Positions 4,500 through 61,603 of a stretch of 64,000 nt of DNA are shown here, piece after piece; positions within the stretch are counted from its first letter, which is position 1, and each line of letters opens with the position of its first letter. The notes under the pieces are model-generated. The model did not search any database and was not told the DNA's origin. It was given only the letters and a program-made list of their open reading frames with translations. Where the stretch lies: positions 496,001-560,000 of the forward strand of contig JAYWIR010000034.1 of NCBI GenBank assembly GCA_036172245.1, in the 5' to 3' direction. The DNA is from Raillietiella orientalis. Lineage: Eukaryota. Position numbers and translations under genes: made by a program.

Positions 4500-6763
4500 G
4501 AAGAAGACCACGGAGCTATGAACACGTGCGACACTCAAAATTCATTGAGCAGCCTCCGTGCCACAGCGGAAAAGTCCGATCCTCGAAAAGCGAATGCGTC
4601 CCACAAAACCTCCAAAGCTGCCTCAACAAGGTGGCGTCGGCCGCCTGCGCTGCAGACCGAGAATAGCTTCCCTCTTCCTTCAAGCGAAAAAAGCACTCAT
4701 CTCCCTTCTGACACCGCTGTCTCGGGATGGAAGCCGAGGAAGATACGTTAGGTGAGAACATCAGAGCGGAAATCTCGAACATGCGCAGCGGTCAACGCCG
4801 CTACCATGGCCTGTGCCACGGAAGACATCGCTCGCTCGCACGTCGCACCTCGAGCGTTCTGCAGTAAGCGCGCCGCGGGACGACCGTAACGACCAGCTGC
4901 AGCTACGGCGATCAGAAAAGGAACGACGACTCTGAAGACCTCGGCGCGAGCGAGGAATCCGCATCCCGTCTCCCGAACGCGTGATTCCCGACGTCGGGGA
5001 AGATCCAGAAGCAGCTTCCGAGGGATGCGAAACCACGCGGAACGGCGGAGCCGTCCTACTTCCGGGTGCAAAGCACCAAGACCAAAGACAAGCACCGGAA
5101 ACAAAACAAGAAGAGCAAAAAAGAAACGACCGGACAATCTAGAAGCGTTCAGCTGCTGCGCTCTCGGAGATTGGCACCGGACAGCGTCCGGAAGGTTAAG
5201 CCACCGCTAGGAGCACGGCGCTTCGTGGCAGGAGGCCGCGTCCGCTGCCTGCCAGGCGATCCGGCCTTTGCCTCGCACCTCCAGCAAGGAAGCGAGGATT
5301 CCGCTTCCTGCGCCGATCGCCAGCGAGGGGCTTTCAGCAGAGATCGGACGGACTGCAAACACGAAAGAGTCTTGCCAGAGGGAGCGCGCTCGTGCTCCCT
5401 ACCAGAACCCGTTCGTCTTCCTTCTGGGCTTTCCACGGCTGGGTGCCCAGGCTGTCAGTGAAGCTTCAAGCAACGTCATCGCCCGCTGGCGCGGCTGCGG
5501 CCGGTCTCGTCAGCGCGCCCTCTTTTCGGTGTCGCCTTCGGTGGACGAAACGGCGCGCCGGTTGCGTGACGCCTCGAGAGGGGACATGGAGCCTGGACGA
5601 GAGGAAGTGTGGAGTCTTCACGAAAGCCTGCCACCGGGCCGGGGAGGAAAAGACCGGAATCGGCATCGCTCGTCGAGTTGCCAAGAGATGCTGTGCAGCC
5701 AAGCTGCGAGAGAGCAGACGGGGCATGCGCTCCGGTGACGCTGGGTACAGGATGTCTCTGCCAGGTGTCGGGATCCAATGCAGCCACGGAAGCGGAGAAC
5801 TCGGAGGAGCGGCACGCCGCGAACGCAGCAGCTTCTTTTTGCACCAACGGGAGTCAGGAAGATCTCGACTTGCAACGAGGGGGACTCGGAGGTGGACGCA
5901 GGGCAAAGACGACTTCCGGACGAGATGTTGAGGAGCGAGCAGAAGACGGGAAGAAGTCGGCTGTAGAGAGAGGTGTTTACGGATGGAGGACACCCGGATT
6001 CACCGTCAGAAGGGTCGATCACTCGCTTCGCCCTACGGCTGAATTCCTCGCTGGCCCATCGCGCTCCCCGTAAAAACCTCTCCTGGGGTCACGCCGCCGC
6101 CTTCCGCACTCCGACGCGATGAAGTGACGCGGCTCGCATGCAGGCGGAGGAAAGTCGTGCGGCGGCCTCCGTCGAGCAGAGAAGCGGATGCCGGCATGAG
6201 CGGCGAGCCGGCGAGTCCTCTGGCAGGTCGCCTCTTCCAAGGCGGGATTCCCCCTTCTTGTTCCTTCCTTCCTTGTCGCAAAGGTCGCCTACTCGAGGAC
6301 GCCAGGAGTGCGAAGGGGAAAGGACGACGGGTGGCTGGCTTCCTTGGGGAATGGTTGACGCGTGCAGCGTGAGGGAAGTCTCTGAGACTCGGGAACGTTA
6401 GGACTGCTGCGGCACGTACCGGGACGAGATGCAAGCGAGGTTAGCGAGAACAAGGAAACCGACGCGTGGGGATCGTCTTGGAAACGGGCGGAGGCTTACC
6501 TCATCTGTTGGTTGTGTATGCGGCAAATGTCGTCGTAGTTGTGGTAGAACGCTTGGAAGAGGAGGAGGTTCTCCAGCCACTCGATGTGCACCTTGAAGTG
6601 CTTCCGGTCGTCCAGGTACAGACTTTCGTTCTTCATGAACTGCAATGCGAGCCATCTTTAGGGCGCTGCTGCCAGTCGACAGGATTCCGCCCCGAATGTT
6701 AGCCCGCCAGCGGATGCCGCGTTCCCCTTCGGCGCGACTTCGCGAGAGGATCGGAACGGGAAG
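4500..6763. repeat. Left arm of 2,264-bp inverted repeat (partner 59340-61603)
   Basis: All ORFs mirror those at 59.4-61.6 kb with coordinate sum 66103. Differences seen only at 4530, 5502, 5512, 5526 and 6756. Confidence 0.98.
6500..6639 (-). CDS. Coding exon 3 of the MATH-like gene FMKNESLYLDDRKHFKVHIEWLENLLLFQAFYHNYDDICRIHNQQM(R)
   Basis: Acceptor GCATTGCAG|TTC and donor ATGAG|GTAAGC. 140 nt, phase 0 in (matches exon 2), phase 2 out, no stops. YLDD..FKVHIEW resembles the last MATH strand. Strong codon bias (40/46 codons end in G/C). Not in the ORF track because it is short. Confidence 0.85.
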
Positions 6764-9220
6764 AGAACGTGTTCCGAGTCCCTGTAGGTGTTCATGCTGC
6801 CCCTCCTACTAGCCGCTCATCTCTCTCAAACTCGCATTTTCGTGACGCCTGGTCCACGCGAGTAGCTACTCGCATCGTTCTTTAACATGAAGCGGTGCCT
6901 GCAAGGCACCTCATGGAAGCTGAAGGCGGATATTCCCATGTTTAAGGGAATATGCGTCTTTCGTCTGCAGACGTAGAAGGTCAAGATAATCTGACACTTT
7001 TAGGTTTTCTGACGAGGCGAGTTTCGGAGGGTGTTCTGCTATTCGGACGAAACGAAATGAAAACTGACAGCATCACTCTCTCGCATCATCGGTTTCTGAT
7101 TCTTGCTCGGTCTTTTCGATTAACGCTCAACAGAGTCCAGAAAAGTTCTTTCTGAAGCAAATCCACCCTGCTACAAGGGAAACCCTTCACAGCTAGCACT
7201 TTTTCCGAGCATTGAGCAAGATTTCGTTCATTTTGGTTAACCGACGTCCATGGTGTAATCCTCACCGTTGTGTGAAAGTTTAAATTTTATATTCCTATTT
7301 ATATATTTCGTTTTTCACTGTGAGTCTCTAAAACCTTCAATGTGTTTTTTCCACGTAAGACTTCAAAACACGAACACGCACTTTTTTCCACATGTGCCTC
7401 AGCTGTGTTTTTCGCATCCCGAACGGATTAGCTGGACTTCATGTTGCTGTTCCCCTTCCTTTTTTCCTTTCAGATTGGCAGAAGCATCATCGGTTTTGTC
7501 ATTCTAAAAATAAAAAATTCTTTTCCTTCGAGCCCTTCCAGGTTTTGAAATTCATTCATCATCCTCCTACTAGCTGCATACTCCGAAAGGCGCGCGTTAA
7601 GATGCCTACTAGCTGACATTGATCCGAATGAAGGAAATTCGTACCGGTTCCCCAAGCGAAAGAGAGTATTGATCACTTCGGAGAATGGTGGAGCCGCAGC
7701 TTACAGAATACCGACTCCTGTAGCAGCATGGCATCAATACGAAGAGACTTTATTTCACTGAAGAAAAGAAAGACTCTCCCAACGCGTCCAAGCAACTTGT
7801 GCCTTTCCTCAGACAACTTTGATGCTACATCTCAAACACTAATAACGACTGGATTTCTGTACCGGTTCCTGCAAGATGCATGCACGCTGAGGCATCCCCA
7901 TGCATCCTGAATCTCTTCTCCAGTTCTGTCATCGAGATGCGAATGCCATGATCTCGTTGCCGATCAGCGCTCAGTGTGCGCTGTGAAAGACCTGGCGTCT
8001 CTTTGCAACCGCATCCTCTGCTGTTGCAAGGAGGCGCACAAAGAGCTGATGGTTCGTGTGTCGTCAAGGCAATCTTCGAAGCAGCGGGAAAGAAGAGCGA
8101 GAGTGACAGAAATCGGAAGGTTTGATCTCATCTCTCCACAGGTCGCACTCCTGGAACTTCCCGATCTTCCCGAATTTCCTTACTTTTGTAGACCAGCATC
8201 AAGCTCCAAAATTCCTATTGTTTCGACTTTACAAATCCCATGCAGCACTGTACGATACGGAAAAAGTTCACGGAGACATTGATTTTCTGCACTCAATGTG
8301 ATCCCATAGTAAAGTTGTTCTGCCCTCTCCTCCCTTCCTCTCTTCCTTTCTTTTCTCTTCGCGGAATTCCTGACTTCCTAGGAAGTTTACAACGTTTGGT
8401 TGTATAGACGCAATGTTTGGAGCAGGATGAATACAGAATTCCCAGGGTCATCGTTGACTTTCCAAGCTGAACTGACTCGAATTAACACAGATGGTTAGTT
8501 AACATCCTTCTTGTGGCTTCCGATTACTAAAAGGGTTCATTTTTATTGTGGTCTTTTTTTTACCAATGAGAAATGTTCGGGTCAGGGGCGGTTACCGGGA
8601 AATTTCCCATGCTGGTGTTTCCTACTTCTTCTCATGGCATCCTTTCAGCAAGCCTTTCTCCAAAAATTCCGCTAGCAGTCTTTCGCGTTGAGATAGGAGA
8701 AACTCCAGAGAGCACTTTGATCTCCTGGAATCATTAGGATGTGCATGTCTCACCATAATCCTGGTACCGGAGCCATGCATTAGAAGCGCGTTGAATACAA
8801 CAAATAAATTGATACGAGCACAATGGCGCACGCACATGCACGCGCAATGAGACGATTCCGAACGATCATTTCATGTGTTTTTCAAAATGCTTTTGACACC
8901 AAAGAAAACAAACTGAGATAAATCAATATGTACAGCTTTCCTCTTCCCCTCCCCCCCCCCCCCCTTCGAAAGGGAGTCCTCGTCGTTTCGGATATTTTCC
9001 CAGTTTGGCATTTCATTGGTTATTCAGACTGGTTTTTCTTCCAAATTCCCAGGTTCCCATAAATCTGATAAGAGATAAATAAACGAATACGAGAACATGC
9101 GTGATAAAGAGCGATCTATGAAACGAGTCACGCGCGACCACGTGTCCGCATAATGAAAACGGAGCTGCTGCACACTTGCGTCATGCAAATGATTTCATTC
9201 ATAACACAAATGGATTCTAC
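6640..9220 (-). other. Intron between coding exons 2 and 3 (2.6 kb, GT-AG, phase 0)
   Basis: GT at 9220-9219 and AG at 6641-6640 on the minus strand; junction reads SAE|FMK. Confidence 0.8.
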
Positions 9221-38128: not shown

Positions 38129-39671
38129 ATAAGCAAGTTGTTTAAATGCATCCTATAAATAAACAAATAAGGGAGGAAACAGTGTCCCGTCACAAGCAAG
38201 TCGTATTTTTCGATGGAGCTGGTAGTACTCGGTGATGTCTCTCAGGCACTGGATGCGCGTTATCTTCAGTTAGGGATCTCGCCGATTCGGTTTCCTTGCT
38301 TGAACTGCATCCCTCTGCAGGAGGGAGAAGTTTGGAATGTGAAATTTTAATGAACACTGAAAAGCAGCCCGCCGTAAATCCTGTGTCTTTCGAAACACAA
38401 GCGCCCAGTGTCGACTTCACAGCTGCACCAAATGCCTTTCTGATATAACACACACGCAGCACACAGAAATCGAAACTGCAAGTTGGTTCTCAGCTGCTTG
38501 GATTCTGTGAGATCATAGGAAATCCGGAGATGCATGCAGATCACTCTGATCAAGATCTTGAGGACTCTTCGAGATGGGAGGTTAGCACTTCCTCAGTCTT
38601 TTTAGCACTGGGATTTCACAGTACTTGTGTTTTCTGCAGACATAGATCCTGCTTCTAAACACTGCCACATTAAAAACCATGGGAAACCAATCTTCAGAGC
38701 AAAGGGCATTTTTGCTTGCGAGGTCTCACAACATTGGAGGGCAGGCATCTGCAGCAGCCGAGCTTCATTCCCTGATAAGAAGCAGGGAACGTGGACGTGA
38801 AAACAATAGAGATGAGAAGGATGCCAGGTACAAAATCAGCTTTCCAAGTTCAAACGAGGACGAAGTGTTGATCTTGAATTTCAATAAAAGTGTTTTCACA
38901 TATATCAACGTCACACCAAGTGACGAATTCTTTTTCCAATTAGCGCTGCCAAGAATTTAGAAGGCCACGAAAACTCGGAAAAGTCCTAAACGCAAGTGCA
39001 TACGGAAGGGAACACCCATCGTTCACAGTTTTGCTCATTTGCTCGGAGAGGGAGACGGAGTTTTGGAGTCGCACCAAATTTTGGAAATCGTTCGAGAAAA
39101 CACACGGATTTTACGCGTTCCGTCCGGGCACTTCTTTTTGTTTTCGCACGTTTCCTTGCAGACTGCATTTCGTAATCCAGTTGAAAGTCATCTTTTAGAG
39201 CTTATTCTTAGAGCGACGTTTTTTTTTTTTTTTTTTTACAAAGCATCATTCCTTTAAAGGAATATCTTCAAAGGAATGATGATGAATCAGCAAAATGATA
39301 AATTAGAGAAAGTAAATAGGTTAGGACATTATCTCCCTCCTGCAAACACGATGTTATTCGTTTGAAACTTTAGCAATCTGAGACCTGAGAGCGAGGAGCC
39401 CGCGTTTTCTCATGTGGACGAAAACCGATTCTCACTTTTCCATTAAACGCGCTCCAGGCATTATCCATGTCTTGGTCATATCACGGCACTGGCATTTTTA
39501 ATGTTGCCGATGGTATCGAGCGTGAAAGATTCTACGAAATAAGTCACTCGTTGGTAATCTAACCTATGGTCACTCGTTGCTGACCTCCAAATTTGAAAAT
39601 ACCTTCAGCAATTAAACACACTGCAGCTGCGGATGCGATCTGTGGAGAGCCAAACAGAAAATGAAAGTGCA

Positions 39672-39699: not shown

Positions 39700-42600
39700 C
39701 ATGACGTGAAAAATCTGCAGCCTAAGAGATCCGACTTTCCTCACTGCTTCTGTGCAGCTGTTTCCAAAGAATTATCAAATCGCCAGAAACGGTTCTCTAG
39801 ACGACAGTTGCTCGGAAATGCTAAAGACGCGATCTGGAATTCCATGTTCCATATAATACTTTGATCTTTCGATCAGATTCTGCACCCAAAGCGATCAAGT
39901 TATCACCACAGGCGTTCGGGTAAGGAAGACTGAGATGCAGTGACCTCAGATCTCGTGAAACACCACTCCTTCAATAGTGACTCTTTAGGAGTCAGCGTGC
40001 ATGGATTTCCTTACTCTCGCTTGGATTATTTAGCATTGATTTGCTCTCTTGAGCTTTCAGCAAGACGGATTTCATCAAAAGATGACCCCATGCGTTCATT
40101 TGGTTCATTTTCTTTCTTCCTTTCTTTCTTTTCTGAATTGACTTCGGACTGATTACGAAATTCGATGCAATTGGATATATTTCCTTATCATGTAATTCGG
40201 ATTCAGGAGGACATTCTTCCGAGAAGCTGCAAATTCGTTCTCACTCAAGCCTGCCTATCGCAAGATTGAGGGCTCATAGAAATTACACAAAGGGGCCTAA
40301 AAAACACCTCCGAAATGGAACGATTGGGTATGAGAAAATACGGGTGAATCGAAACTTTGTTTCAGCATCCACTTGTCAAATGCTCCCACTTTCCTGAGTT
40401 TCCCCGGTCTCTCTCTTCCCAGTGCACGATGGAAGTGTCGTGGGAACGAACACAGCAGATGCAAGTTTGGTAGGAAAAAAACAAAACCGAAATGCAGTTT
40501 TGCAAAAGCGGGCATCTGCGGAAAATCAAGGAGATACAGATCTCGAGATGCTTGCGGTGAGAGAACTTCAAATAAAGAACTTTGAAGGGATCAGCCGAAT
40601 TCGATTCTTTTGTGGCTCGCAGGGAAGCACTGCACTGGGATGCCAGCCATGTGTTCAATCCGCAATCCTGCATAAGTAATTTCAGGTGAAAAGATCGCCC
40701 TTCTTCGTAAAGGCATCCTCCTAAGCCAGGAGCACCATGTCCTCAGCCTGGAATTTCTTGGCATTCTTTTTGTGCGAACTCCGGCTGAGGTTGGACTCCG
40801 ACTTTTGCAAACTTAGAAACGTTGATGATGTAAGCACACCCAAAAGCCGAGTCTCTGGGTCTCAAATTGAAGTCTGAACAAATGATTTTCAGAAATTCAC
40901 AAATCCTGATGCTTCTCAAGGAAGACCTGGGAACTCTAACGTCAAAAGTGCATCCAAAGTATCCCAGCAAAGAGACAACGTCTTCATGAAAATTGAAACT
41001 TCTGGACCATGCAAAAAGCGTTATTATTGAATGAGGAAATGCGCAACGAACTTATATTGGATGTTGTATGCCGAAGAATTGATGCTACTGCCCCTGGAGT
41101 CATGAAAACTCGGTTGACAGTAATGAGACAGAAGCAACTGGATGTTAGAGCTGCTATGATAGGTCCTTGTTCTTGAAACAAGAGTTGAGAAAATTATCGG
41201 TAAAAGAAGGCCACAGAAGTAGCACGTTTGGTCTGGAAGAGTACGTACGTGTGATGTGTGCTGTGGACCAGCAAGGTACTTTTAGATTGAATCCGTTCTA
41301 CAGAAGACTCAACAAACTTCATGAGACCAAGAGTGTTCTCAAAGGCAGATCACTAGGAAGCTGAGGAGTTCGATCGGAGGCATCTTTGGAGTTGATTACG
41401 CGCGTACTTTCTCGATGCCAAAATCTGAAACCAGGCACTGCTTTCAAAGAATATGCGAAGGCGCATCAAAATGGAGGAAATACGCGCTAGCAGAGCGGAA
41501 ACGGGAGAAACGGAATCCCAAGGCGAGTCTCTGCAGAACTGCGTCTCGACATTCGGGATCTCCCCAAGATGAAACCACGGAACGCCTTCGAACAGCTGTC
41601 CTTGGAAATGCGCAAACGTAGTTTTCCTCGCGGCGGCGTCGCGTTCGAAATTCAACACAAAACTCAGACATCAGTCTGCAATGGCCAATCCTGACCACTT
41701 TGGTTGGACGGCTATCAAAAGCCAACATTCGGGAACCGACTCAGACTCCGTCACGATGTCCACGTTCGCGAATCTTTCCGTTGGTATCGCTGTAATGATA
41801 TCCCACAAGTACGACCGAATGATCCATTCATCGTTTCAATAGATCCAATGGTCTGCATGATGAGTGGAACTCATGAACCGAGTGGAAAAATTCAGTAGAA
41901 GATTTCGAGGATAGCTGGCTAAGAAGGTGGAGGGGAGAGGAGGACACTGACCTTCTTTCATCTCTCAGACTTCGCTAACTCTGAAGATTCATACAAGAAG
42001 CTTCTCATTCACGCGTGGCTACCTAGCTAAGGAACGGACGATAAAATTTGGGGGAACCGGGCGATGTCTTTCCCTCGCCAGCCTCTCGCACTGAACTGCA
42101 GCATCCTTTCTCAACTTCACTGCCATGACGCCAGGCAACCGAATATCGCTTTTGGCTCTATTTTTCGACCCGGGAGTGTGTGATGTACTTGGTCAATGGT
42201 CGTCTGGAGCTTAAACTCCTTACTTGAATGCGTGGGCTCACTGCAGTGTGCCATACGATCCCCCAGTAAAAGGGTAATGGAAACAGTGGAAGTACAACAG
42301 TTTACTGGACCAAGGGATGTTTTCATTCGTGAACTGATCTGATGAAGTTTTGCGCGCATGACAGAGGAGTTTTCCAGTGAAATCTTGGTGTCATCGGGTG
42401 AGCATCTCGTCTAAATGATGCTGAATTCACGGCAAATGCAAAAGGTGTCCTTTGTTTGGTTATTAGCGTTGTCATGGAGCTGTGACGTAAGGAGCCAGGA
42501 GTCAATACTACACAGCAGGCTTTTTGCTATCCACAATATCATTGAGGCGTGTTCTGCAGTGAAAGGCGGAATGAAGTGAGATTTCTCTGGGAGCCTAGCA

Positions 42601-45059
42601 TTACTGGAGTATTGCTCACTTTTCGAAGCGTGGGGATGCGTAACACCGCACCATCATCATGCGGACCTCAGACGGAAACACGAGGGTGCCGGTGGAGTGC
42701 AAAGAACGAACACAAACGAATAATGCATCTGTCCACGGCGCAACTTCATCTGCGCTGTCCTTCCGCACGCCTGCGATTGTTTTTAACATGAAATCCAGGA
42801 GTCACCATTGTCTCAACAAGATCTTCGTCCCGAGGTGCAAGCCAACTTCAAGCAGTCTCACTGCTGCGTGTGCGGGCGCTCTGATTCTAAAAGAGCATCG
42901 AGAAGAACGGGAATGAAAATGTTCTGCAGCTGCAGTTTTTGCTTTGGCTGGAGGGCACAGATGCTTGACAAAATGAGAGGGGGCGTTCGCTTCTCGCACG
43001 CTTCTTGCTCCTGCTCCACACGAAATGCGAGGTTCGAAGCGCCCTCTGCTTCCGTACGCAGCCATCAAAGGCAAAGAAGACGTAGTTTTCGTCCGCCTGA
43101 GAATGAAGACATTGCTCGCGTGGTTCATGGTGGATTTCGTGGCCAAAATGCCGCACAGGCGACAATAACTCAAGGATCTGCCAAGCCCAACCCCGGAGGC
43201 AGCGTGCTCATTCCACGCTTGAATTTACACCATGCAGGAGTGCAAAGTCGTTCGGGATTCTTTGGAAAACAATTCCAAGCAACATGAGTCGCAGAAAAGG
43301 AGAAGATGGTCTCTTGCATCTTGACAGCACGCCACTTCGTTCCCAACGTTAAGGAAAGAAATCCGACCGCTCTTCAGAATAAAATTTCGAAGATTTCCAG
43401 CGGAGCTAAGAGGTAGTGGAAGTACGGTAGGGATGGCACATATGTTCTGTCATCATTTCGTACCATTCTTGTCACCAACCCTTGCTTCTTGAAGAGCCGT
43501 TACACATAGTAGCCGGGAAGGTCACATAACACTGCAAGCATTTCCAAAGCATCGCTAGGGTCTTCCAACTGTTGCCAGGAAAGGAAATCTATAACCAACT
43601 GATACATTGCTCTCTCTCTCCCGTCAATTTTCTTGCAACTTCCTACCAAGAGGTGCGGCATCTGTGTCAATAGATGCTCACTGGAAATCTCACCGAAATG
43701 AAGTCAGCCAACGAGGAAGAAACCCTCGCTAACGATTCCATCTCCTAATAGAGAGTTCCTGGAGAAGGTTTCGGTCTTTCTCCGCTCTTGAAGTGACATT
43801 CGTTCGTAATCTGCCGACTACCTCGGAGCAGATGCTTTGCTCTCACTGCCCCCAATCAAAATATCACCCACGATGCCAGCAGCAGTCGAGGTCTTCTGAC
43901 TCTGCGGCTGGGCTTGCACTGGTGTCCGCCGCGCGACAGCCTCTTGGGAAACGCGTCCACGGCTGGATCTTCCCCAGCTCGCTCAGACGGATGCCAGAAC
44001 TCCTGCTGGTCCTCAGGAGGGACAGAGAGAAGGAGGAGGCGCGGATGTTAACAGTGGCTTCGGGGGATGGGTGGACGGGAATTCTTTCACGTATCCAGCT
44101 TCAGCAGCAGAGCTTCCCTTGGAAGTCGGACCTGGGGCGGCCCGCACGGGTCCGGAGAGCACGAAGGTTCTCACGGGAGACTATAGTGGTCTCTTAGGAG
44201 AAAGAACTCGCTCTTGAGAGAGAGTCTGAAACTTCTTCTGGAGGTGCTCCTCTCCGAGGAGGAGCCTGCTGAACGGATGTTGGGAGGAGCGAAACCTATT
44301 TCCCGACTCTTGATTGGCCTGAGTGGGGATGGTGTTGCACGGAATCCTGCTTCACTTCTTCTTCGTGCCATGAGCCTTCTTGACTGGTATCAGACTGCAT
44401 GGACGGGTGTCGAAGTCCACCCTGACCTGCACAGGAAATGCTTCCCTCTCCTGGAGGTAAGTGCTCGAAGCCGTGACGATTCAAACCGTCGGGCTAAGAA
44501 TGGCTAATACTCGATTCTTTGCAAAGAGCGGCGTTCCGTAGGAGAAAGGAAAGGAGGAGCAACCGGAGGGGTGGTCCTTCTTGTCCATTTCTTCTCTTAG
44601 GCAGAGCCAAGTGTCAACGGAACAAGTTGGGACCTTCGCCCATTTGAGAGCACTTCGTCCTTCCTCAGCCTAAACGGCTGGACTCTCCCTTCCCTGAATG
44701 GGGCGCACCCTAGAGACCCTTTGGGGACTCTTGAGATTCGAGGAGGAAGATCATCAGGGAGGAATTCGGCACGTATTGATCTCGCCACTGCTCGCATCGG
44801 ATGCTGCTGAGGAGCTCCTGCAAAAAATTTCCTGCAAGAAACCTGCAGGCCCCGTTCCCGGTCTCCTTCCTCCTACACGCTTCAGCTGTACATATACTAA
44901 AATTGGTCTGGGGCTCCTCGACGGCGACGGGCACAGGACAAGGAGGAATCCCATCTTCTCCCCCTTTTTTGCCTCTCGGTCAATGATCGAAAGGAGGTTT
45001 TCTGCACAGGCGGCTTCCGCTCGCCTTCCTGCGTGATTTACTGCTGCCGCCATCGACTG

Positions 45060-45231
45060 GGTAGAACCATTTTTTACACGCGATGGCACGGATTGTCAGG
45101 AGAATAGAAGCAGAGGAGGTGGAAAAAGAGGAAAAGTGGAAGAGCAAATGGAAAAGAAGGAAGGAAAGTAGAAAAGCGAGGGGAGGAAGGGAGGGAAGGT
45201 CTCATTCTTTGCTGGAAACTGCCAGGTGTAT
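45060..45231. repeat. About 170-bp purine-rich dispersed repeat, copy A
   Basis: GGTAGAACCATTTTTT..GGCACGGATTGTCAGGAGAATAGAAG..CTGCCAGGTGTAT; direct repeat of 47932-48100, roughly 85% identical by eye. Confidence 0.9.
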
Positions 45232-45656
45232 CGGTCTGGGATGCGCCCTCTGTTCCGTCCTTTTTTCAATTTCCGAAAAGGAAAGTTGAAACGTCTCAGG
45301 GAAGAAATGGGGTAGAGACGGGGTCTGCAGCGCTAGCCAGGAACTCAAGATCCAGCGCTAGAAATCGTCCCTCATCGTCATCGGCGGTGCTGAGTATATG
45401 TGAGTCGGAAGCTGTCTTCCAAAAACAGCAAGAAGGGAAAACGTGAAAGTGGGAGAGATGAGGTCACTTAAATGGTCATCTGGACTGTAGGACACCAAGA
45501 GCGAAGGGTGCTACAGCCTGCCGTCTCCGAACGTCTGGAGCGGCTGGCGAGTTCCCTGCACTTCGAGTGAAGCGGTGCATCGTCTTCCGGCTCTTCCGTC
45601 ACGCCTGGAGATGCGTTCCTTTAAAACAGGAGCGAAGAAGAGAGCATTTGCGAACA

Positions 45657-45704
45657 ATGCGCATCCAAGGGCTCGTCTATTCTCATGCGCCCTTGGATGC
45701 GCAT
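45657..45704. repeat. Perfect 16-bp inverted repeat with 16-nt loop
   Basis: ATGCGCATCCAAGGGC (45657-45672) / GCCCTTGGATGCGCAT (45689-45704). Confidence 0.95.
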
Positions 45705-47896
45705 CAGAACGCTGATGAGGGATCAGTGAGCCTCAGGGCCAGGGAATACTCCGATGGTTTCCGTCCTCTGGATACTACCTCACCAGCATTGCTCGTTCTA
45801 CTCCTGGAAGAGTAGCTCTCTCCTGCCCAGTCAGTGGGCATCGTTTCCCTCTACCGCGGAGGCGAGTCGTCCTCGGGGAGCGAAGAGTCTTCTGCAGTTG
45901 CACCTTTTTTTTTCTTCCTGGACTTCACCAACAGAAGAATAGATAATCGGAAGGAAAGCTTCCTGTTGGAAACGGCTCCTGTGTTTGTTTCCCTGCTTCT
46001 TTCTCGGTATCGCTCCCGAGTGCCCGCGGTGCCAGAGTCAGGACTCAGCTTCCCAAGGGCACTTCGTCAGATGCCATCCCAGCCGCCGAGGAACATAGGG
46101 CTGGTCTCTCTCCCAGCACTAGGTCCATTGTCATTAGGTCGCCTCAGGCCAACTTCCCGCCCCCGCTCCCAAGAAGTCCGTGGAATATGCGGGGACTGCA
46201 GGCGCGAGGGAGGAGAGAACCCGGAATCCGTAGAAGTCATTGTCTAGTTCAATGTATCCCTAGACCTCGAGGTGAAGGACCGGCCTCCGGAAGATCGCAT
46301 CATTCGAGAAATCTTATCTTGGTTGCAAATTTCTCCTTCTCGCTTTTCCTTTCCCTTCTTGCACTCCCCTCTGGAGTGGCTCGGTGGATCGCTCGGGTAT
46401 GTAGGCAAACCCGGTCGCCGGACCTCAGGAAACGCGGAATGCCTTCCCGCCTCTTCTTAAAGGTCTCCCTCTCGAGTGACTCCATTGTGCTTCCAGGAGC
46501 GGCTATCACTTTCGAAGGGATTCCCACTGGTAACGAGATTTCAGGAAGAGGGAGACGCATCTCGGATTCTTCCCAGCTCCAAGGTTTGACTCATCAACCG
46601 AACTGAGATCTCCTGCACCCAGTCACCCCTTTTGGGAAGGGCCAGTACCTTCTGTCTTGATTTCTGGATGGAAACATGCGACTGCTCCTTTCTTAGGACG
46701 TAGGAATCCGCTGCACATCTGGAGACTCACCAAGGAGATCGGCACAAGGAGGGGGAGCTTCGGGGTGGAAGAGGGGGAAAGGAATGCCTGGAAGGGTGAT
46801 CTGTTATTTTCTGAGACAGTGGCCTGTAGCGTGATCAGCTTCCCTATAGTTCCCCGCTCCGGAACTGCTCTCTTGGCCCCACGCGCTCTCCTGACTCTTC
46901 GCAGTTCCCGAACGGACTCTGTCCGCCTCCTTCCTCTCCCTCCAAATCTTCTCCGGAGAGCCCTCTTGCCCTCGAAATCTCTTTTTCTTGTGGCAAGAGG
47001 ACCCCTGTCACGTGGTTGTACTAGTGCCCTGGTGTTCTCCCTCCATCTCCCCTTTCCCCAGGCATTGTTTATGGGACCCGTGTTGCGTCTTCCTCTCTTT
47101 TTCTTGAAGGTTTTGAAAGACTCCTGCACACCCGCTGGCAGGCAGCGTTATGTAAAAAAGAAAGAGGAAGTCCGTGGGGACCGGCTCTGGAGGAGCTGCA
47201 CAAACCCAGGGACAGGCCGAACCTATTGAGGGACTCCGTTCTTTGCATTCAGGATTGCCACTACTCTATCAAGGAAGGGCATAGTGAGAGCACGTCCCTG
47301 CGAGAACCGTAAAGACGACGCGAGCTGCAAGAACCTTCTTGGTAGGTCTGAATAATCCAGGAGCATGCTCCTCCCACTTCTCCCTTCGGCTTCGGAGAAA
47401 GGAACATGGGAGTGGGGAAGGCATTCAACAAGATTTGGCGGACGAGTCCTGCGCTCGGTTACCTCCCGGCGTAGACAAGCAGCAAGCAAAACAGATTTTT
47501 CTTCCCCACCTTATTCTTCTTTGAAGACGGGCTCTAGCACTCAAGAACGGGAATCGTGAGAACTGACCTCGGGAGATGGTTACCCTGAGGAACGCCGCAG
47601 GGAATGTCGCTCCAGTGTCCTCCCGCGCTTCATACCGAACTGCCCTCTCTGGGAAGTCCAAAGCAAAGGTCCTTGTGTGGAAAGGGAAGCGAGACGCGGG
47701 AGAACAAGGAGAAGGAGAAGGTAGAAAAGAAGCAGAGAGAGCCGCTTTCTCGTCTGAAAGTCAGGAGTGGCGGGATCAAGCTTTACCGGGCTGCCTCCTG
47801 TCCACTCCCTTTCATGTGGCGTGGCTACCGCTTGCCACGGGCACGGCCGCTGGAACTTTCGGAGATGCCGAGTACCGAGTGCGTTCCCCGCCTCAG

Positions 47897-48142
47897 AAAC
47901 ACCCAAACAGGGAGCCCAGAAGGATCCGGAAGGTAGAACCATTTTTTGCACGTGGTGGCACGGATTGTCAGGAGAATAGAAGAAGAGGAGGTCGAAAAAG
48001 AGGAAAAGTGGAAGAACAAATGGAAGAGAAGGAAATAAAGAAGAGCGAGGGGAGGAAGGGGGGGAAAGTCTCGTTCTTTGCTGGAGACTGCCAGGTGTAT
48101 ACATCCACAAACACCCAAACAGGGAGCTCAGAAGGATCCGGA
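47897..48142. mobile_element. 178-bp insert (copy B of the 170-bp repeat) flanked by 34-bp direct repeats
   Basis: AAACACCCAAACAGGGAGC(C/T)CAGAAGGATCCGGA at 47897-47930 and 48109-48142 (one mismatch) bracket 47931-48108. Confidence 0.75.
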
Positions 48143-48790
48143 GGGCGCTTTTCCGGGAAAGGGGTTTCCCCTACGCCGCCTCACCCCGACGTGCATATCG
48201 CCCACTCCGCCGCTCACGCCACGCGCGAGCACCCGGGAGCTGCAGCGGCTGCAGAACTGGCCCGTCCCTAACATTCTTACCTCAAGAGGGCCGGGACGTT
48301 GCCCGTCCCTCCCTCACACACCCAGTCAGTGTACCGCGGCCTTCGCGAACTCGAGAGCAGTCGCGTCTTCCCACCTCTTTCCTCTCCGCTCCCTCTGGCG
48401 TCCTTCTCGCTCTCCCGTGAAGCGAATGGCAAAAGGGAGTGAGAGGCTGCGAGGTCTTCGGAAGGACAAGAACGCCTCTCTCTCGGGAGGGAGCGCGCCC
48501 CCTTCGGGAGCCCTCCGCTTACCTGGAGACGGCGGCGTGTTCCTGACGACGTTCCTGCTCCGCGAGTCCTCGCGCACACGACGGGATCCCATCGATAACT
48601 CGGGTACTACGGGAGCAGCCTGGATGCTTGACCCCCTCCCTCCTGCGAGCATGCGCCCGCGGTTCCAAGTCGGTTCGACCGGGAAGTATCCGAAGGAGGA
48701 CTCCCGACGGCTGAGCGGGCTCATTCCCGTCGTTTTCTTGGGAAATTTCCCGCCCTCTCGAAGGCTCGGGTGCTAATCGAGTTCGAGACT
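48140..48790. other. GC/CpG-rich island
   Basis: Line 48181-48240 is 44/60 G+C with dense CpG, far above the background; function unknown. Confidence 0.7.
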
Positions 48791-49541
48791 CCCTTTATTC
48801 CTCAATTCCCTCCCCTTCCTTCGAGCGGGAAGGAGGAAAAAAGGGGGAAATCAACCGCTTCTGCGTCCAGATTTCCAGAAACACAGATCCCTTTCAGTTC
48901 AGGCGGTGGATCCTGGGGAATAGGGAGACCCCTGGATCTGGGATTAGCCCGTGCATTCTTTCCTTTTTTGGTGGTCGAGAGAGAAGGATGGATGAGATGG
49001 TCATTTCTGACCCTTCTCCTTGTCCTTTATCCCCCATGAGTGAGTGTGCTGGAGAGGACCTAGAGTCCTGGATCGAGAGAAGGGCCGCTCTAGAGCTCCT
49101 CATGAGGGAGACCCAAAGGACAGCCGACTGTTAGGAAAAACAGGAATAATTTGCAGTTCTTCATGACGGACGGGGTTGCGAGGAAGGCGGAAGCAGAGGG
49201 GAAGGGCAGAGACTAGAATTCTTTGCCGGCTCCCGAAAGAGTGAGATCCGTGTTCAATGCTCCCTGAGGGAACGGAGGGAGAAGAAACTCCCCTGGAAAC
49301 CGGATTTGAGCTGACGAAGGATGGGGTTGCCACGTTCTTGTTGAACTGAACGTCCGGATTGCCATTGGGAACAGGCGCATGGTCAGCTGATCTAGTGGTC
49401 GTGGCCCGCTCCTTGTAAGAGCTTGCATGGTCAGCAAGGGGTACTGAGGGCGAGGGCAGCTTTCTGAGCAGCGGGGTTGCGCGCCCACTCGGGGACGTCA
49501 GAACGGATCACGGCCTGCTAAGGAGGAAGACGACCACTGAA

Positions 49542-50365
49542 GACCCGCGTTGGTGGCCTTGTGGCTGTAGTTTCCGCGCACTGAACCACACGTTGCGGGT
49601 TCGAATCTCTACATCAAGAATCAACGCCGGAGACATAGGTGCATCATGGGTACGAGTTTGCCCCGCAATATAACGCTGGTTGTCCCATATTCGGGTGCAG
49701 CACTGGTGAAAACTGGATGCCCTGTTGATTGTGCGGGATTTGGAAGTTGACTTTCTGGGATCCTTCCCGGAATCACGGAACCAGTTCCCTTCGGGGCTCC
49801 CTTCCTGTTATGAAAATAAAGTCGTGCTTCCCTTGGGGAGAAGACTCTTTCCATCGGGTATCATGGGGATGGTTGGTATCCCTCCCCAGGGGTTGCCTCT
49901 CCAAAGTTCGCTGCTCATTTTGGGAAGCACCCATCAGAGGAGCGGTTCCCTTGGGAGTTTCCTCCGGAAGAGAAATTCAGGAGTGCATCCTTTTTAGGTT
50001 CCTTTTGGAGAACAAATGAAGAATGACTCCCTCCGGAGGGTCTCTCCGGATAGAACAAGGAATAGGTTCCCTTCGTGGTTTCCTTCGGAGATAACCAGGG
50101 CGAAAGTTTCCCTGCCAGGAGTAGGTAGAACGGATTTCTTCCTCCACAGACTTCCTGGATTCATAGGGTGGTCCCTTCGGAGTTACCCCTTAAATTGAAG
50201 GGGCACACGCACCTTGGAGTGGTGTGGGCAGTATTGAAAAGATCTGTGAGTCTCGCTTTGCGAGGTGGTCGATTCTTCAGCACTTAGCGAACCAAAAAAG
50301 AAAGAAGCCGAAAAGAAAAAAAAGCTGGGAGGAAAATAGAAGAGTAGAAGAATCCAAAAGGATTT
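49542..50365 (+). mobile_element. Long tRNA-headed SINE-like element, copy 1
   Basis: A-box-like TGGCCTTGTGG, B-box GGTTCGAATC (49598-49607), tail ACTTAGCGAACC plus A-rich tract (50282-50323). Colinear homology to 52305-53106 (e.g. CCCCGCAA.AT.AC.CTGGT, AACTGGATGCCC, TTCATAGGGTGGTCC). Confidence 0.7.
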
Positions 50366-52304: not shown

Positions 52305-53106
52305 GGTCCACCTTGGATGCCCCGTGGCTGCGGTATCCACGCGTGGTACCAAGCGTTGCTGGTTCGAATCCCGCCCTTCGAAGGATCGACCCTGTAAAAT
52401 GGGTGCGTCGTGGGTTTCGCGTTCCCCCGCAAGATGACTCTGGTGACGGCAATGGAGGTAGCCCGGAACTGGATGCCCCTGCTGTGTGGCCGGGATGGGA
52501 ATTTAACTCTCCGGAGTCCTCCCGGGAATCAAGGAGCCGACCCCCTTCGGAGTTCCCTCCCGGTTGTGAAAATGGAGCCGTCAAGTACCTACGAAGCTGG
52601 CTCCAGGGCGTCAAGAAGCGCACTCCTCCTTTCTGGGAGCTTCAGAGAAATTTGGAAGGGTTCGGGTTCTCTTTAGTAGAATAAAAGCGCTTTCCTCCAA
52701 AAAAGACACTTCATGAACGGATCCTTTCGGGGTTCCCTTCGATGGAGAACTGTGGAGTCACCCCCTCCGGGAATCTCTCCGGTGAGGGTAAGAAAGAGAA
52801 GTCCCCTTCCAGGCTCCTTCCTACAAATCGTAAGAGGAACGAACCCCTTCCATCGGGGCCTTCCTAGATTCTTCATAGGGTGGTCCTCTCTCCGCGGTTA
52901 CCCCTAACTCTTCAGAATTACAAGCACCCTCGGGTGGCGTCGATGGTGTCAAAGAGGAACTTCGTGTCCCCCCCCCCCGTGTCCCCTCCCGCCCTTCGCC
53001 CCCCCCCTTCCTTCCCAAAGAGGCGAACGGTTTTTTCAATACTTAGCGAACCAAAAAAAAAAAAAAGCTGGAAGGCAAGCAGCGAGAACAGAACTCAAAA
53101 GGATTT
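52305..53106 (+). mobile_element. Long tRNA-headed SINE-like element, copy 2
   Basis: B-box GGTTCGAATCCC (52361-52372), tail ACTTAGCGAACC plus A14 (53041-53066), same internal blocks as copy 1. Diverged by eye to about 70% identity. Confidence 0.7.
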
Positions 53107-56100: not shown

Positions 56101-59100
56101 TGGAGATGAGTATTCTGGTAGCTCATGAAACGAATATAAAGCCCTGTACACGGACGCAACGGTTCCTGGTCATAGCAAAAGCATTTGGTAGATCCCATTA
56201 ATATTTCTTAACAGGGGAAGTTGCTTTGTAATTGGTGCGGATTGAAACTGATTCGTCTGACACAAGGAAGACCACATGTATCCCGGAAACCATAAGCAAA
56301 ACGGCAATGAGAAAGAGATGCAGCAGTGTCGAAAAAACTAATGTCAATGTCCTTAACTCGTCTAAAGTCATTTTACAAGTGTGGGTTTGACATTAGTATC
56401 CCATGAGTACTTGAGAATGTTTGGAGATAACTCGTTGTCTGAAGAAAGCAGCGAAGCTGTTTCATAGGTTTTCCTCTCCTGTGAGGGATCTCCTGGAAAC
56501 TTTCCATGGAAGCACAAAACCTGGAAGCGAGACCACAACCTTCAAACTTCAAATAATGCCCCGTGCTTGGTAAAACTATTGCTCCAGAATGCCATACATC
56601 CTTCAGCGATCGACAAACACTATCGACCATCCTCATCGAAGAATCGCATCTCTCAAGCGATTCAAGATTTCAGATTCCTCTTTAGTGGAAGCGAGTGACT
56701 CGCATCCTTTGTGAAGCAATCCGTTGCCACAGTTTGCAACGTTCATGCAGCCCACACTTGTAGGAATTTATCGCCGATTTTCCCACACCACAGGAAGAAG
56801 TGCTGGAAGCAGCAGAGAATAAGGAAGCTGGAATGGATGCTTTCTTCGTATTCCAAATTCAGAGAACGCAATCAGGTCTCAGAAATTCGGAAGGAATGCA
56901 AAGGGAGAATGTCAAAATCAAGGTGACAGCATCCTGAATATTCTGGACAGTCAGACTACGGCCGAGATCAAGAACCAACCAGTTTTTCCTCAGATGCCCT
57001 GTCAGTCATCAGAGGCTTAGCAACGACACTTGGAAAACGTGTTTCCAGACGAGTGCCGTATTCCATCCCAGCTTATTTGAGTTCTGTTATCTCGGTCCTA
57101 AGAAGATCGAGACGCACAGGGTAGAGCCCAACAAGATGTATTTATTCGAAAGGGCCTGTAACTTAAACTATGCGAGATAAGATTGAGGGGCATGAGCAGT
57201 GGCTCTTTAAGAACTGTAGAGTTTGACAGCTATGTGAAAACAAATGAGGCTGGTCCGAAGGTACGTTGCAGTTCCTATCCAAAAGGAGATGCTGATTTCT
57301 AATTACATCAGGTTGGAAGCAAACTTGGCTTTGTGAAATCTCCAGTATCTAAAAAAGAAGAAGAAAGATCGACTTCTTAGAGAACCCATTTATTCTAACA
57401 TAAAGGAAAAAAGTACAACTGGAGGAAGGAGCTTTCCTTTATGGATGACATTAAGAGAAACAAGTAGGACTCAAAAGTGATATTCATTGACTTTTCTCGT
57501 ACTTTCTGAATCCCATGAGGTACAACTGGATGTTTCTAATTTTCCCCGAATCCAGTTTTCTAAATCATCTTATGAGGATAAGGCTTAACTCAGAAAAGGA
57601 GAATCTGACGCTGTTTTTTTTTTTTTAGTGTGCCGAATGCTACTTAGTCCTTGCATCCCTTTTATATGAAAGTTTTTCTTCTTCTCCTTTTTTTTTTCAT
57701 AGCCCGAGATAATGATCGTGCAAGCGTTCGTGCGTTTGAAAAAGATTCTCTCCTTAGCACACGGTTCTTTTAACCTTTCCGAACATGTCCTTATACATCA
57801 TGCTGAGTCCTTGCAGCACACATTTTAAATGACGTGTGGACTGCAGGGACGGCGGAATGCATCTCGAATCGAGTGCTGTCTGAAAAGCCAAGTTTGTCAG
57901 AAGTTAGATGCTGTTAAAAGATGCCTTTTGTTAGATGCCAGAAGTCCATTTGCTAAAGGACTCGGTGTGAAGATGGCCGCAGCACTGCCAACAGAATTTC
58001 GATGCATATTTCATCAACAGAGAACGGTTCGTTGGGAAGAAGAATAAAAGCTGCCCAATCCGGAACGAGCAGGCTGCTTCTGTCTGGAAATCTTTGTAAA
58101 AAAACAAACCATTAGCATTCAGCGCGTGCCTTGCATTTTAGCCACGACTGGATAGGGGCCTACGAAGAAAGGGCGCCTCTGTAAACTAAACTTATAGATG
58201 AAATAGATCATTTTACCTCGAAACTGCAAAAAGTGATCAGCCATCTTCAGTTAGTTTAGGAGAATTTTTGTTGCGACCTTTAGATAGTAATCAACGAAGA
58301 AGAATTCGGTTTCCAGCTCCATTCCATGGTCTTTTGTTAGATGCCGGAATCCAACGCAGAAGATGCACTCTCTCGCATAGAAAATTCATCTTTCTCTTTA
58401 TGGCCGAAGCATTTCATACTGAGGTCTGTAGAAAACGCAGTTTGGGAGCATCGGAAACAGTGCTCACAAAATGCGGGAGTCTGTTCTCTCACGAGAACAC
58501 ATTCATGCGTCCCGTCGGAAGCTGTTAGTATCCCGGCATTTTGTCAACATGCAAAGTTGTGTGTGCCATGCACGGCAAGCAAAAGTCTCTTCTCTTTTTT
58601 TGCCTCATCATTAGGGCGTCTCAGTTTGTCCTTTGAGCTTGCTTTCCATGCTGCTTTTTGTGTCTCTCAGCATTCGCGAATCTCTTCCGATGCGTTCTCT
58701 CTTAGTGATGACAGATTCCGCTGCTACAAATTCAGCCGGTCTGTTTCAGGAAATTCTAGGAGAAATTCCATCAGAGGCGACTGCTGTTCACGACGGCCGC
58801 AGCACTGACGTGGAAAGATTCTTCTTCGATTCTATAGCCGGAAGCAATGGAATGGCTTGTGGTTGCACAGCTTGCCCCTAGGTTACAGGCCGGCTGTTGT
58901 CGACCGTTGAGACTGGTAAAAATCTTCAACACCAAGTCGCACTCACAATTCCTTCACAACTCTGTCAATCGAACGAGAAATCGTGAAAAAAACGAAAACG
59001 CCGTTTTATCATCGGTTGAGGAGACCTGAAGATTACCTCTTCCGCTCTCAAAAGGAGCAGCTCTGAAGAATCACCAGTACTCAAGAAAGGCAATTACACA

Positions 59101-59339
59101 AGTGCTGACAAACAAATTCTACAATGGAGCACTTGATATTTTGCAAGAACGGAGCTCATCTCCAGCTTCCGTATCACAACTTCTACCCATGATTTGGCAT
59201 GTCCAGTGCTATTGGAGAAGGGCAAGCTTGCAAAGGATCCTCCAGGACATCATTATGCCTTGTAGCAGCGATGACTACGTCGGCAGGGTTACTCTCCAGG
59301 ATGAACGTAAACAGACAACCGAAACTCGCAGCACCTTCG

Positions 59340-61603
59340 CTTCCCGATCCGATCCTCTCGCGAAGTCGCGCCGAAGGGGAACGCGGCATCCGCTGGCGGG
59401 CTAACATTCGGGGCGGAATCCTGTCGACTGGCAGCAGCGCCCTAAAGATGGCTCGCATTGCAGTTCATGAAGAACGAAAGTCTGTACCTGGACGACCGGA
59501 AGCACTTCAAGGTGCACATCGAGTGGCTGGAGAACCTCCTCCTCTTCCAAGCGTTCTACCACAACTACGACGACATTTGCCGCATACACAACCAACAGAT
59601 GAGGTAAGCCTCCGCCCGTTTCCAAGACGATCCCCACGCGTCGGTTTCCTTGTTCTCGCTAACCTCGCTTGCATCTCGTCCCGGTACGTGCCGCAGCAGT
59701 CCTAACGTTCCCGAGTCTCAGAGACTTCCCTCACGCTGCACGCGTCAACCATTCCCCAAGGAAGCCAGCCACCCGTCGTCCTTTCCCCTTCGCACTCCTG
59801 GCGTCCTCGAGTAGGCGACCTTTGCGACAAGGAAGGAAGGAACAAGAAGGGGGAATCCCGCCTTGGAAGAGGCGACCTGCCAGAGGACTCGCCGGCTCGC
59901 CGCTCATGCCGGCATCCGCTTCTCTGCTCGACGGAGGCCGCCGCACGACTTTCCTCCGCCTGCATGCGAGCCGCGTCACTTCATCGCGTCGGAGTGCGGA
60001 AGGCGGCGGCGTGACCCCAGGAGAGGTTTTTACGGGGAGCGCGATGGGCCAGCGAGGAATTCAGCCGTAGGGCGAAGCGAGTGATCGACCCTTCTGACGG
60101 TGAATCCGGGTGTCCTCCATCCGTAAACACCTCTCTCTACAGCCGACTTCTTCCCGTCTTCTGCTCGCTCCTCAACATCTCGTCCGGAAGTCGTCTTTGC
60201 CCTGCGTCCACCTCCGAGTCCCCCTCGTTGCAAGTCGAGATCTTCCTGACTCCCGTTGGTGCAAAAAGAAGCTGCTGCGTTCGCGGCGTGCCGCTCCTCC
60301 GAGTTCTCCGCTTCCGTGGCTGCATTGGATCCCGACACCTGGCAGAGACATCCTGTACCCAGCGTCACCGGAGCGCATGCCCCGTCTGCTCTCTCGCAGC
60401 TTGGCTGCACAGCATCTCTTGGCAACTCGACGAGCGATGCCGATTCCGGTCTTTTCCTCCCCGGCCCGGTGGCAGGCTTTCGTGAAGACTCCACACTTCC
60501 TCTCGTCCAGGCTCCATGTCCCCTCTCGAGGCGTCACGCAACCGGCGCGCCGTTTCGTCCACCGAAGGCGACACCGGAAAGAGGGCGCGCCGACGAGACC
60601 CGCCGCAGCCGCGCCAGCGGGCGATGACGTTGCTTGAAGCTTCACTGACAGCCTGGGCACCCAGCCGTGGAAAGCCCAGAAGGAAGACGAACGGGTTCTG
60701 GTAGGGAGCACGAGCGCGCTCCCTCTGGCAAGACTCTTTCGTGTTTGCAGTCCGTCCGATCTCTGCTGAAAGCCCCTCGCTGGCGATCGGCGCAGGAAGC
60801 GGAATCCTCGCTTCCTTGCTGGAGGTGCGAGGCAAAGGCCGGATCGCCTGGCAGGCAGCGGACGCGGCCTCCTGCCACGAAGCGCCGTGCTCCTAGCGGT
60901 GGCTTAACCTTCCGGACGCTGTCCGGTGCCAATCTCCGAGAGCGCAGCAGCTGAACGCTTCTAGATTGTCCGGTCGTTTCTTTTTTGCTCTTCTTGTTTT
61001 GTTTCCGGTGCTTGTCTTTGGTCTTGGTGCTTTGCACCCGGAAGTAGGACGGCTCCGCCGTTCCGCGTGGTTTCGCATCCCTCGGAAGCTGCTTCTGGAT
61101 CTTCCCCGACGTCGGGAATCACGCGTTCGGGAGACGGGATGCGGATTCCTCGCTCGCGCCGAGGTCTTCAGAGTCGTCGTTCCTTTTCTGATCGCCGTAG
61201 CTGCAGCTGGTCGTTACGGTCGTCCCGCGGCGCGCTTACTGCAGAACGCTCGAGGTGCGACGTGCGAGCGAGCGATGTCTTCCGTGGCACAGGCCATGGT
61301 AGCGGCGTTGACCGCTGCGCATGTTCGAGATTTCCGCTCTGATGTTCTCACCTAACGTATCTTCCTCGGCTTCCATCCCGAGACAGCGGTGTCAGAAGGG
61401 AGATGAGTGCTTTTTTCGCTTGAAGGAAGAGGGAAGCTATTCTCGGTCTGCAGCGCAGGCGGCCGACGCCACCTTGTTGAGGCAGCTTTGGAGGTTTTGT
61501 GGGACGCATTCGCTTTTCGAGGATCGGACTTTTCCGCTGTGGCACGGAGGCTGCTCAATGAATTTTGAGTGTTGCACGTGTTCATAGCTCCGTGGTCTTC
61601 TTC
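59340..61603. repeat. Right arm of 2,264-bp inverted repeat (partner 4500-6763)
   Basis: Reverse complement of the left arm; differences at 61573, 60601, 60591, 60577 and 59347. Confidence 0.98.
59464..59603 (+). other. Identical second copy of coding exon 3, opposite orientation, upstream of the gene; orphan in this arrangement
   Basis: Reverse complement of 6500-6639 with no differences seen; acceptor TTGCAG| at 59463 and donor |GTAAGC at 59604 intact. No + strand copy of exons 1-2 found upstream. Confidence 0.9.

Follow-up and report, generated by a model that had tools for sequence, protein, structure and literature searches.

We describe here an inverted repeat of 2,280 nucleotides (nt) that brackets the first two coding exons of a MATH-domain gene in a 64,000-nt stretch of the Raillietiella orientalis genome (GenBank assembly GCA_036172245.1, contig JAYWIR010000034.1, positions 496,001 to 560,000 of the forward strand; this whole stretch is hereafter ‘the window’, and coordinates are counted from its first letter). 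The original prediction had been that the locus is an invertible gene switch, in which a segment carrying exons 1 and 2 turns over between two copies of exon 3. On balance, we think it probable that the repeat is instead a recent inverted segmental duplication, the left copy being native, and that it constitutes a passive substrate for non-allelic homologous recombination (NAHR), with no regulated switch. As far as the sequence can be read, the architecture would permit inversion by arm-to-arm exchange and nothing in the window suggests a switch; that the repeat is a working DNA switch is most likely not the case. The elements of the repeat are the following (GC denotes guanine plus cytosine content; the ‘core’ of the repeat is 4500-6755 of the left arm and its counterpart):

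4500-6779: left arm; carries exon 3 of the gene, which lies on the minus strand, with the 140 nt of intron 2 before it and 2,000 nt of intron 3 after it; 60.8% GC.
6780-59323: spacer; 52,544 nt, with exons 1 and 2 and, at about 42-50 kb, a block rich in GC.
59324-61603: right arm; matches the left arm in reverse complement except at 9 of 2,280 nt.
5502-5526: mismatch cluster; three of the four core mismatches inside 25 nt.
4434-4463: left half of a patch of extra homology outside the core, with 36 left-specific bases between patch and core.
61610-61638: the patch's right half, at a distance of only 6 bases from the core.

The arms agree at 2,271 of their 2,280 positions (99.6%; 99.605% by self-blastn), a match beyond what chance could produce. 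A repeat search of the window returned them as its single inverted pair of at least 100 nt. Self-blastn confirmed this, and in that comparison the pair is also the sole repeat longer than 200 nt, with no further copy of the arm in the window. Base-by-base comparison places the mismatches at left-arm positions 4530, 5502, 5512, 5526, 6756, 6764, 6768, 6772 and 6774. The arms had originally been given as 2,264 bp (4500-6763) and as identical: the inverted pair stands, the identity does not (that interval holds five mismatches), and the repeat extends to the full length listed above. Within the core there are four mismatches (99.8% identity), and the interval 5527-6755, which spans exon 3 and both of its splice sites, has none. 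Exon 3, its acceptor and its donor are therefore letter-identical in the two arms, and the proposal that each arm holds a splice-competent exon 3 is borne out. The locus thus has the makeup of one open to inverted-repeat-mediated (NAHR) inversion, namely long and highly identical inverted repeats around a unique segment. The inner edge of the right arm lies 31.4 kb upstream of the start codon of the MATH-domain gene. No AATAAA polyadenylation signal occurs within 4500-6779 or 59324-61603, and a metagenome scan with an exact 50-nt word from the arm gave 0 matches.

Another set of observations concerns the outer edges of the arms. Outside the core, homology resumes in a patch of 30 columns (27 matches, 2 mismatches and 1 gap), which is 90% identical versus 99.8% for the core, and which scores 43 against a maximum of 27 among 30 shuffles. 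The 36 bases that separate patch and core on the left have one 12-mer match only elsewhere in the window; at the right outer edge, an 11-nt copy of adjacent sequence stands in their place. This local duplication looks like the scar of a templated end-joining repair in the right copy. Further out, segments 531-661 and 62602-62734 of the two outer flanks resemble each other weakly in inverted orientation (140 columns, 66% identity, 36.8 bits); the score exceeds 100 of 100 block shuffles (maximum 31.1) and, in real sequence used as control, 40 of 40 comparisons (maximum 29.7). This non-coding match keeps the same order as the arms, at 3.8 kb from the left one and 1.0 kb from the right one, and it may be an old repeat or the leftover of a larger duplication. 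We also considered these two segments as a duplicated exon and rejected the idea: there are stops in all frames and no notable similarity at the protein level.

The coding exons of the gene that are present in the window, together with the second copy of exon 3, are as follows (a slash marks the splice junction):

27907-26946, minus strand: exon 1, 962 nt; ATG at 27907 with in-frame stops before it; donor CTAAG/gtatgt; recognised from Pfam and protein matches.
9374-9221, minus strand: exon 2, 154 nt; acceptor ttattgcag/GCACGT, donor GCAGAG/gtagaa; recognised by tblastn of relatives.
6639-6500, minus strand: exon 3 in the left arm, 140 nt; acceptor ttgcag/TTCATG, phase-2 donor ATGAG/gtaagc; collinear with exons 1 and 2.
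59464-59603, plus strand: exon 3 copy in the right arm; identical sequence and splice sites, on the strand opposite to exons 1 and 2.

The chain of exons 1, 2 and 3 is intact and collinear with the left arm. Its three members sum to 1,256 nt, that is, 418 codons and 2 bases, with no stop, and the spliced model ends at exon 3 with the residues ...CAACAGATGAG. Two elements of the original prediction are thereby sustained, namely the position of the start codon and exons 1 and 2 within the spacer, and the phase-2 donor at which exon 3 ends. When six relatives were compared with the window by tblastn, they aligned as three collinear minus-strand pieces, with the third piece found on the plus strand as well; the spliced model aligns along its whole length (residues 1-418), across both junctions, with two of the relatives (P0011 and P0017). 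In the assembled orientation the plus-strand copy of exon 3 is an orphan, and annotators should demand transcript support before they assign 59464-59603 to a gene.

The identity of the gene was approached through its first exon. We scanned 312 open reading frames (ORFs) against Pfam, comprising all 129 of at least 100 residues and 183 of the 367 of 60-99 residues; 33 of the latter lie in or near the outer flanks and 150 at 4.4-31.6 kb, the 184 at 31.6-61.6 kb being left out. Among the 129 longer ORFs, a MATH domain in the ORF that contains exon 1 (26903-27907, minus strand) is the one real match, and exon 1 is the only Pfam-recognisable ORF in the spacer among all those scanned. This ORF reaches 22.3 bits with PF00917 (cut-off 21.2) and 23.9 bits with PF22486, under that family's cut-off of 32; full-length relatives pass PF22486 with two stretches each (39.8 bits for P0011, 45.9 bits for P0007). 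The same ORF matches 22 proteins from residue 1 onwards (E from 2e-105 to 3e-60, 37-51% identity). Those that are named come from arthropods (Hemiptera, thrips, an orthopteran, a mayfly, a springtail and a scorpion) and are labelled ‘uncharacterized / MATH domain-containing’, and the closest Atlas clusters are likewise arthropod MATH-domain proteins. By these matches the window has the look of nuclear DNA from an arthropod or a near ally; none of the collections yielded a sequence of the same species. Exon 3 on its own is assigned to no family by Pfam, and no solved structure was matched by sequence.

Several features of the gene may be recorded alongside. Its GC at the third codon position climbs from 0.55 in exon 1 to 0.63 in exon 2 and 0.87 in exon 3, following local composition (60.8% GC in the arms, about 42% in the region of exon 1). 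Intron 1 is 17,571 nt long (26945-9375), intron 2 is 2,581 nt and intron 3 no shorter than 4.4-6.5 kb. For introns of this length it is unusual that the window yielded neither a transposon-like Pfam match nor a dispersed repeat. An acceptor-like ttgttctag is found 19 nt upstream of the ATG (27908-27940, minus strand), and it suggests an upstream non-coding exon, with a promoter further right in the spacer or beyond.

What follows exon 3 bears upon every reading of the repeat. Full-length relatives extend 56-72 residues past exon 3, in a strongly conserved tail with the motif REI.ALQ.ENYSLERQLFSYQKSI...TEYA. This tail was not recovered from the window: tblastn with the six relatives gave no match on either side, a profile built from five C-terminal tails and run unfiltered against the six reading frames returned nothing (best E 0.54), and the 2.4 kb to the right of the right arm (61604-64000) contain neither a homologue of the tail nor any recognisable coding sequence. 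Since the conserved last exon is not in the window, more exon sequence probably lies outside it; judged from these searches, the distance from exon 3 to that exon would exceed 6.5 kb if it follows the left copy, and 4.4 kb if it follows the right one. The original prediction held that one or more further exons must follow. The tail of the relatives supports this, and the word ‘must’ has to be softened in one respect: read-through of the exon 3 donor yields AGG TAA, so that the frame closes one codon into the intron (6497-6501 and 59602-59606). The annotated protein of one relative (P0009, 466 residues) ends at the homologous ...QMR. In view of these two facts, a short form that ends at exon 3 is conceivable in either orientation, and a short isoform without the conserved tail may exist.

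We hypothesize that the arrangement began with the copying of 2.3 kb of the MATH-domain gene, in reverse orientation, into a site 31 kb upstream of the start codon. The left copy would be the native one, which would put the conserved last exon on the minus strand, somewhere to the left of the window. The right copy would be an orphan exon, without upstream exons that belong to it, and both of its junctions would be new. The probable route is a template switch during replication or repair synthesis, which would have left the small scar at the right copy's outer end. Once in place, the arms would act as a passive substrate for NAHR, the orientation of the spacer being presumably stable. A rare crossover in the germline would invert the 52.5-kb spacer and separate exons 1-3 from the last exon, in the manner of the intron-1 inversion of F8; the product would be a truncating or fusion allele, expected to persist as a low-frequency polymorphism at most.

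Composition provides one of two modest indications of which copy came first. The arms, at 60.8% GC, stand out from surroundings of 42-46%. Around the left arm, both 500-nt flanks have 47.8% GC and 29 CpG each, so that the arm has graded shoulders. At the right arm, the outer 500-nt flank has 41.4% GC and 13 CpG, and the inner one 46.4% GC and 21 CpG. The other indication is the scar at the right outer edge, and on these two weak counts the left copy looks native. We considered whether GC-biased gene conversion had made the arms GC-rich (and had raised the third-position GC of exon 3 to its 0.87), and set this aside: the window also contains unrepeated GC-rich blocks (about 14-17 kb and 42-50 kb), which, together with the shoulders of the left copy, indicate that the GC-richness of the arms probably predates the duplication.

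A number of points weigh against a plain duplication of this kind. With exon 4 absent from the window, the choice of native copy leans on the two weak signs just given. The inverted copy sits exactly at the far end of the 52.5-kb segment, a position that also fits an inversion by staggered breaks. A core that is 99.8% identical, with three of its four differences in 25 nt, could reflect gene conversion in an older repeat. The outer match between 531-661 and 62602-62734 hints at a duplicated region that was once larger. Finally, the stable orientation is itself an assumption.

A close known parallel is the F8 intron-1 inversion of human haemophilia A, in which a 1,041-bp intronic sequence, int1h-1, recombines with an inverted extragenic copy 140 kb away, int1h-2, and the gene is broken, its first exon being cut off from the remainder by inversion of the segment in between (PMC7098248). 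As in that case, one arm lies in the gene and one outside it, here with arms of 2.3 kb and a spacer of 52.5 kb. Two differences from the F8 case should be borne in mind: the F8 repeat is purely intronic whereas the repeat described here includes a coding exon with both of its splice sites, and the F8 inversion has been observed in patients whereas the present locus is known from one assembled orientation.

Among the alternatives, the one that survives best is that the repeat is the consequence of an inversion and not its cause, being what a past inversion of the 52.5 kb, made by staggered breaks, would have left behind. One breakpoint would have cut across the exon 3 segment and fill-in would have duplicated that segment, leaving the gene split: the left arm would have stayed with exons 1 and 2, and the right arm with the rest of intron 3 and exon 4. 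We regard this as unlikely, yet deserving of serious attention. Bearing in mind that the left arm is joined natively to exon 2, the staggered-break model places exon 4 to the right of the window, on the plus strand; plain duplication and staggered-break inversion therefore make opposite predictions for the side on which exon 4 lies. The window contains inverted copies of otherwise unique sequence exactly at the two ends of one segment, which is the defining pattern in Ranz et al. 2007 (PMC1885836), who report inverted duplications at the breakpoints of 17 of 29 fixed Drosophila inversions, 12 of them with only one breakpoint duplicated. There, too, the copied sequence is ancestrally unique and often genic. 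The native junction between left arm and exon 2 fits the spliced model, and neither tblastn nor the tail profile finds an exon 4 over the 6.5 kb that follow the left exon 3. Against this, exon 4 is equally missing from the 4.4 kb that follow the right exon 3, and the event would have broken a gene that is conserved from scorpions to insects. The repeat is also long and well preserved by comparison: in PMC1885836, the Drosophila duplications average about 88% identity and are at most about 1.9 kb long (median 321 bp), whereas the arms here, known from one orientation, are 99.6% identical over 2.3 kb. Moreover, flank composition and the scar mark the right outer junction as the new one, whereas the model predicts a new left outer junction. 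Were the repeat such a staggered-break scar, it would be a very young case (99.6% identity) of a mechanism known mainly from old, decayed Drosophila examples.

An error of assembly seems to us improbable. It would take the form either of one misplaced arm or of an arbitrary spacer orientation, produced by reads that do not span 2.3 kb. Inverted repeats do leave the orientation of the spacer ambiguous in short-read assemblies, and the roughly 0.2% divergence of the core is within the allelic range, so that a haplotype copy could have been mis-joined. On the other side, the window is free of N and of gaps, and because the right arm stands between two unique stretches its false insertion would require two mis-joins. 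Fold-back artefacts of long reads, furthermore, typically have almost no spacer. The four core differences and the scarred outer edge argue that these are two real loci and not one sequence placed twice, and an edge with such a scar and indels looks biological. The outer flanks of the arms are not allelic, sharing only the 30-column patch and one weak 140-column match. We specifically considered whether the right arm is the left region's other haplotype, mis-joined, and set this aside, the outer flanks being unalignable save for that patch and that weak match.

A locus that flips recurrently, with arms kept alike by gene conversion and both orientations present in the population or in tissues and yielding usable transcripts, is the reading nearest to the switch originally proposed, and we hold it to be slighter still in likelihood than an assembly error. 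Each orientation would provide a different C-terminus or 3' end, or the two would correspond to an on/off state. An arm-to-arm crossover maps position x to 66103-x. By this arithmetic, the flipped locus has exon 1 at 38196-39157 and exon 2 at 56729-56882, both on the plus strand, and intron 2 is again 2,581 nt long, with the same last 140 nt (these being arm sequence), leading into the exon 3 copy at 59464. The proposal that a flip rebuilds the exon 1-2-3 chain, pointing right and followed by the DNA to the right of 61603, is thus correct as coordinate arithmetic. After such a flip, the left exon 3 and the sequence downstream of it would be without a promoter. The identical exon 3 copies and splice sites, and the conservation of intron 2 length, speak for this reading, and the clustered core mismatches and the weak homology of the outer flanks fit conversion in an older repeat. 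The absence of a second terminal exon or tail homologue in the 2.4 kb to the right of the right arm speaks against it, as does the simplest interpretation of the flipped form, which is a truncated allele.

The comparison with programmed switches is also unfavourable. Hin, Gin, Cin, fim and the shufflons employ a dedicated recombinase and short sites, and the isomers of plastid and herpesvirus genomes reflect very frequent recombination in multicopy genomes. What the present locus has in common with these systems is a segment between inverted repeats, with two orientations and different read-outs. It differs from them in that no recombinase appears among the scanned ORFs, in that the arms comprise 2.3 kb of intron and exon sequence where a site-specific switch has short inverted sites of tens of base pairs, and in that the gene is a nuclear one of an animal. 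A site-specific switch would also be expected to have a recombinase or invertase in or beside the segment, and among the 312 ORFs none scored above threshold; the sole ‘Recombinase’ row, PF07508, has an E of 0.0092 and 16.6 bits against a cut-off of 21.1, with no stretch that passes. Rfam and tRNA scans of the window revealed nothing relevant.

Recurrent inversion between inverted repeats is well attested in other genomes, and inverted repeats of the size and identity seen here are able to drive it (PMC3961182 and PMC9731477). In humans, inversions mediated by inverted repeats and 5.1-226 kb in size proved recurrent in 11 of the 16 analysed (PMC3961182). The inversion HsInv0030 trades the first exon, along with the promoter, between CTRB1 and CTRB2 (PMC6748972), which lends some support to a recurrently flipping locus. 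Both HsInv0030 and HsInv0241 (AQP12A/B) resemble the present case in that inverted duplicates lie over parts of genes and inversion re-pairs promoters and first exons with different downstream exons, such inversions often being recurrent (PMC6748972, PMC3961182); they differ in that two complete paralogous genes are involved there, whereas here the repeat holds one internal exon, and the window contains no second gene body. In the flip/flop region of Saccharomyces chromosome XIV, a 24-kb unique segment lies between almost identical 4-kb inverted repeats, which concerted evolution homogenises, and both orientations have been re-created over evolutionary time (PMC9731477). A section heading in that paper calls the yeast flip/flop stable on laboratory timescales, which tells against frequent flipping here. 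The yeast repeats hold whole genes, such that a flip leaves gene structure unchanged, unlike the present repeat with its single exon; and both orientations and homogenisation have been demonstrated in yeast across strains and species, whereas here one sequence was read.

A bolder variant supposes an inverted duplication of the gene's 3' part that is older and larger, with the arms as its homogenised core, and recurrent flips of a 52.5-kb cassette of promoter and exons 1 and 2, through which the population would carry two isomers of the gene with different C-termini. It would place a second terminal exon beyond the right edge of the window, with conversion keeping the arms 99.8% alike. Its supports are the three core differences of four that fall within 25 nt, the drop from 99.8% identity in the core to 90% in the patch, and the 66% match of the outer flanks. 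These same three signs could equally fit clusters of mutations from error-prone repair together with an unrelated old repeat, and we view this variant as a long shot. If it were true, the locus would be to an animal what the flip/flop is to yeast, with a flip that alters the protein.

Barely credible, lastly, is a role at the RNA level, in which a promoter to the right of 61603 would produce a pre-mRNA whose two arms pair as a 2.3-kb duplex, with masking of exon 3, RNA editing or silencing, or back-splicing of exons 1 and 2 as the proposed effects: the acceptor-like ttgttctag before the ATG does suggest a promoter further right, and intronic inverted repeats do promote the formation of circular RNA, but in the transcript 52.5 kb would lie between the arms, and splicing would probably have taken out the upstream intron before the left arm was made.

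Returning to the duplication that we favour, its significance lies in its content. What is distinctive here is that a single internal exon, with both of its splice sites, is present in both arms; for this reason, any inversion would read out directly as a changed 3' exon partner. If the arms are real, they provide a ready substrate for a gene-breaking or rewiring inversion in a conserved, unstudied arthropod MATH-domain gene, and the locus would serve well as a natural test case. A literature search for MATH-domain genes with inverted repeats or inversion polymorphism found no paper, so the original suggestion that such an arrangement is undescribed stands for this gene family; elsewhere, inversions which re-pair parts of genes are known in humans, and inversions of this type in yeast. 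The missing precedent reflects a gene family that is unstudied and is not a sign of a new mechanism. Inverted duplicates that are able to invert and rewire a gene are an established class, and the idea is new only for the MATH family. Whether the repeat proves to be a plain duplication or a staggered-break scar, current understanding would not be altered, for inverted duplications are well documented, as are both the inversions that follow from them and those that give rise to them.

Two other features of the spacer deserve mention. The GC-rich block at 42000-50000 has 54% GC, a CpG observed/expected ratio of 0.78 and many long ORFs, none with a Pfam match. Within it, a direct repeat of 172 nt (47932-48100 and 45060-45231; 90% identity, about 2.9 kb apart) is accompanied by a 40-nt direct match at 45-48 kb. 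The block could be a promoter or 5' untranslated region, or else an old mobile element. To its right, at 52963-53007, is a C-rich tandem repeat with 3.1 copies of the 15-nt unit CGTGTCCCCCCCCCC, which is the only tandem array reported in the 64 kb.

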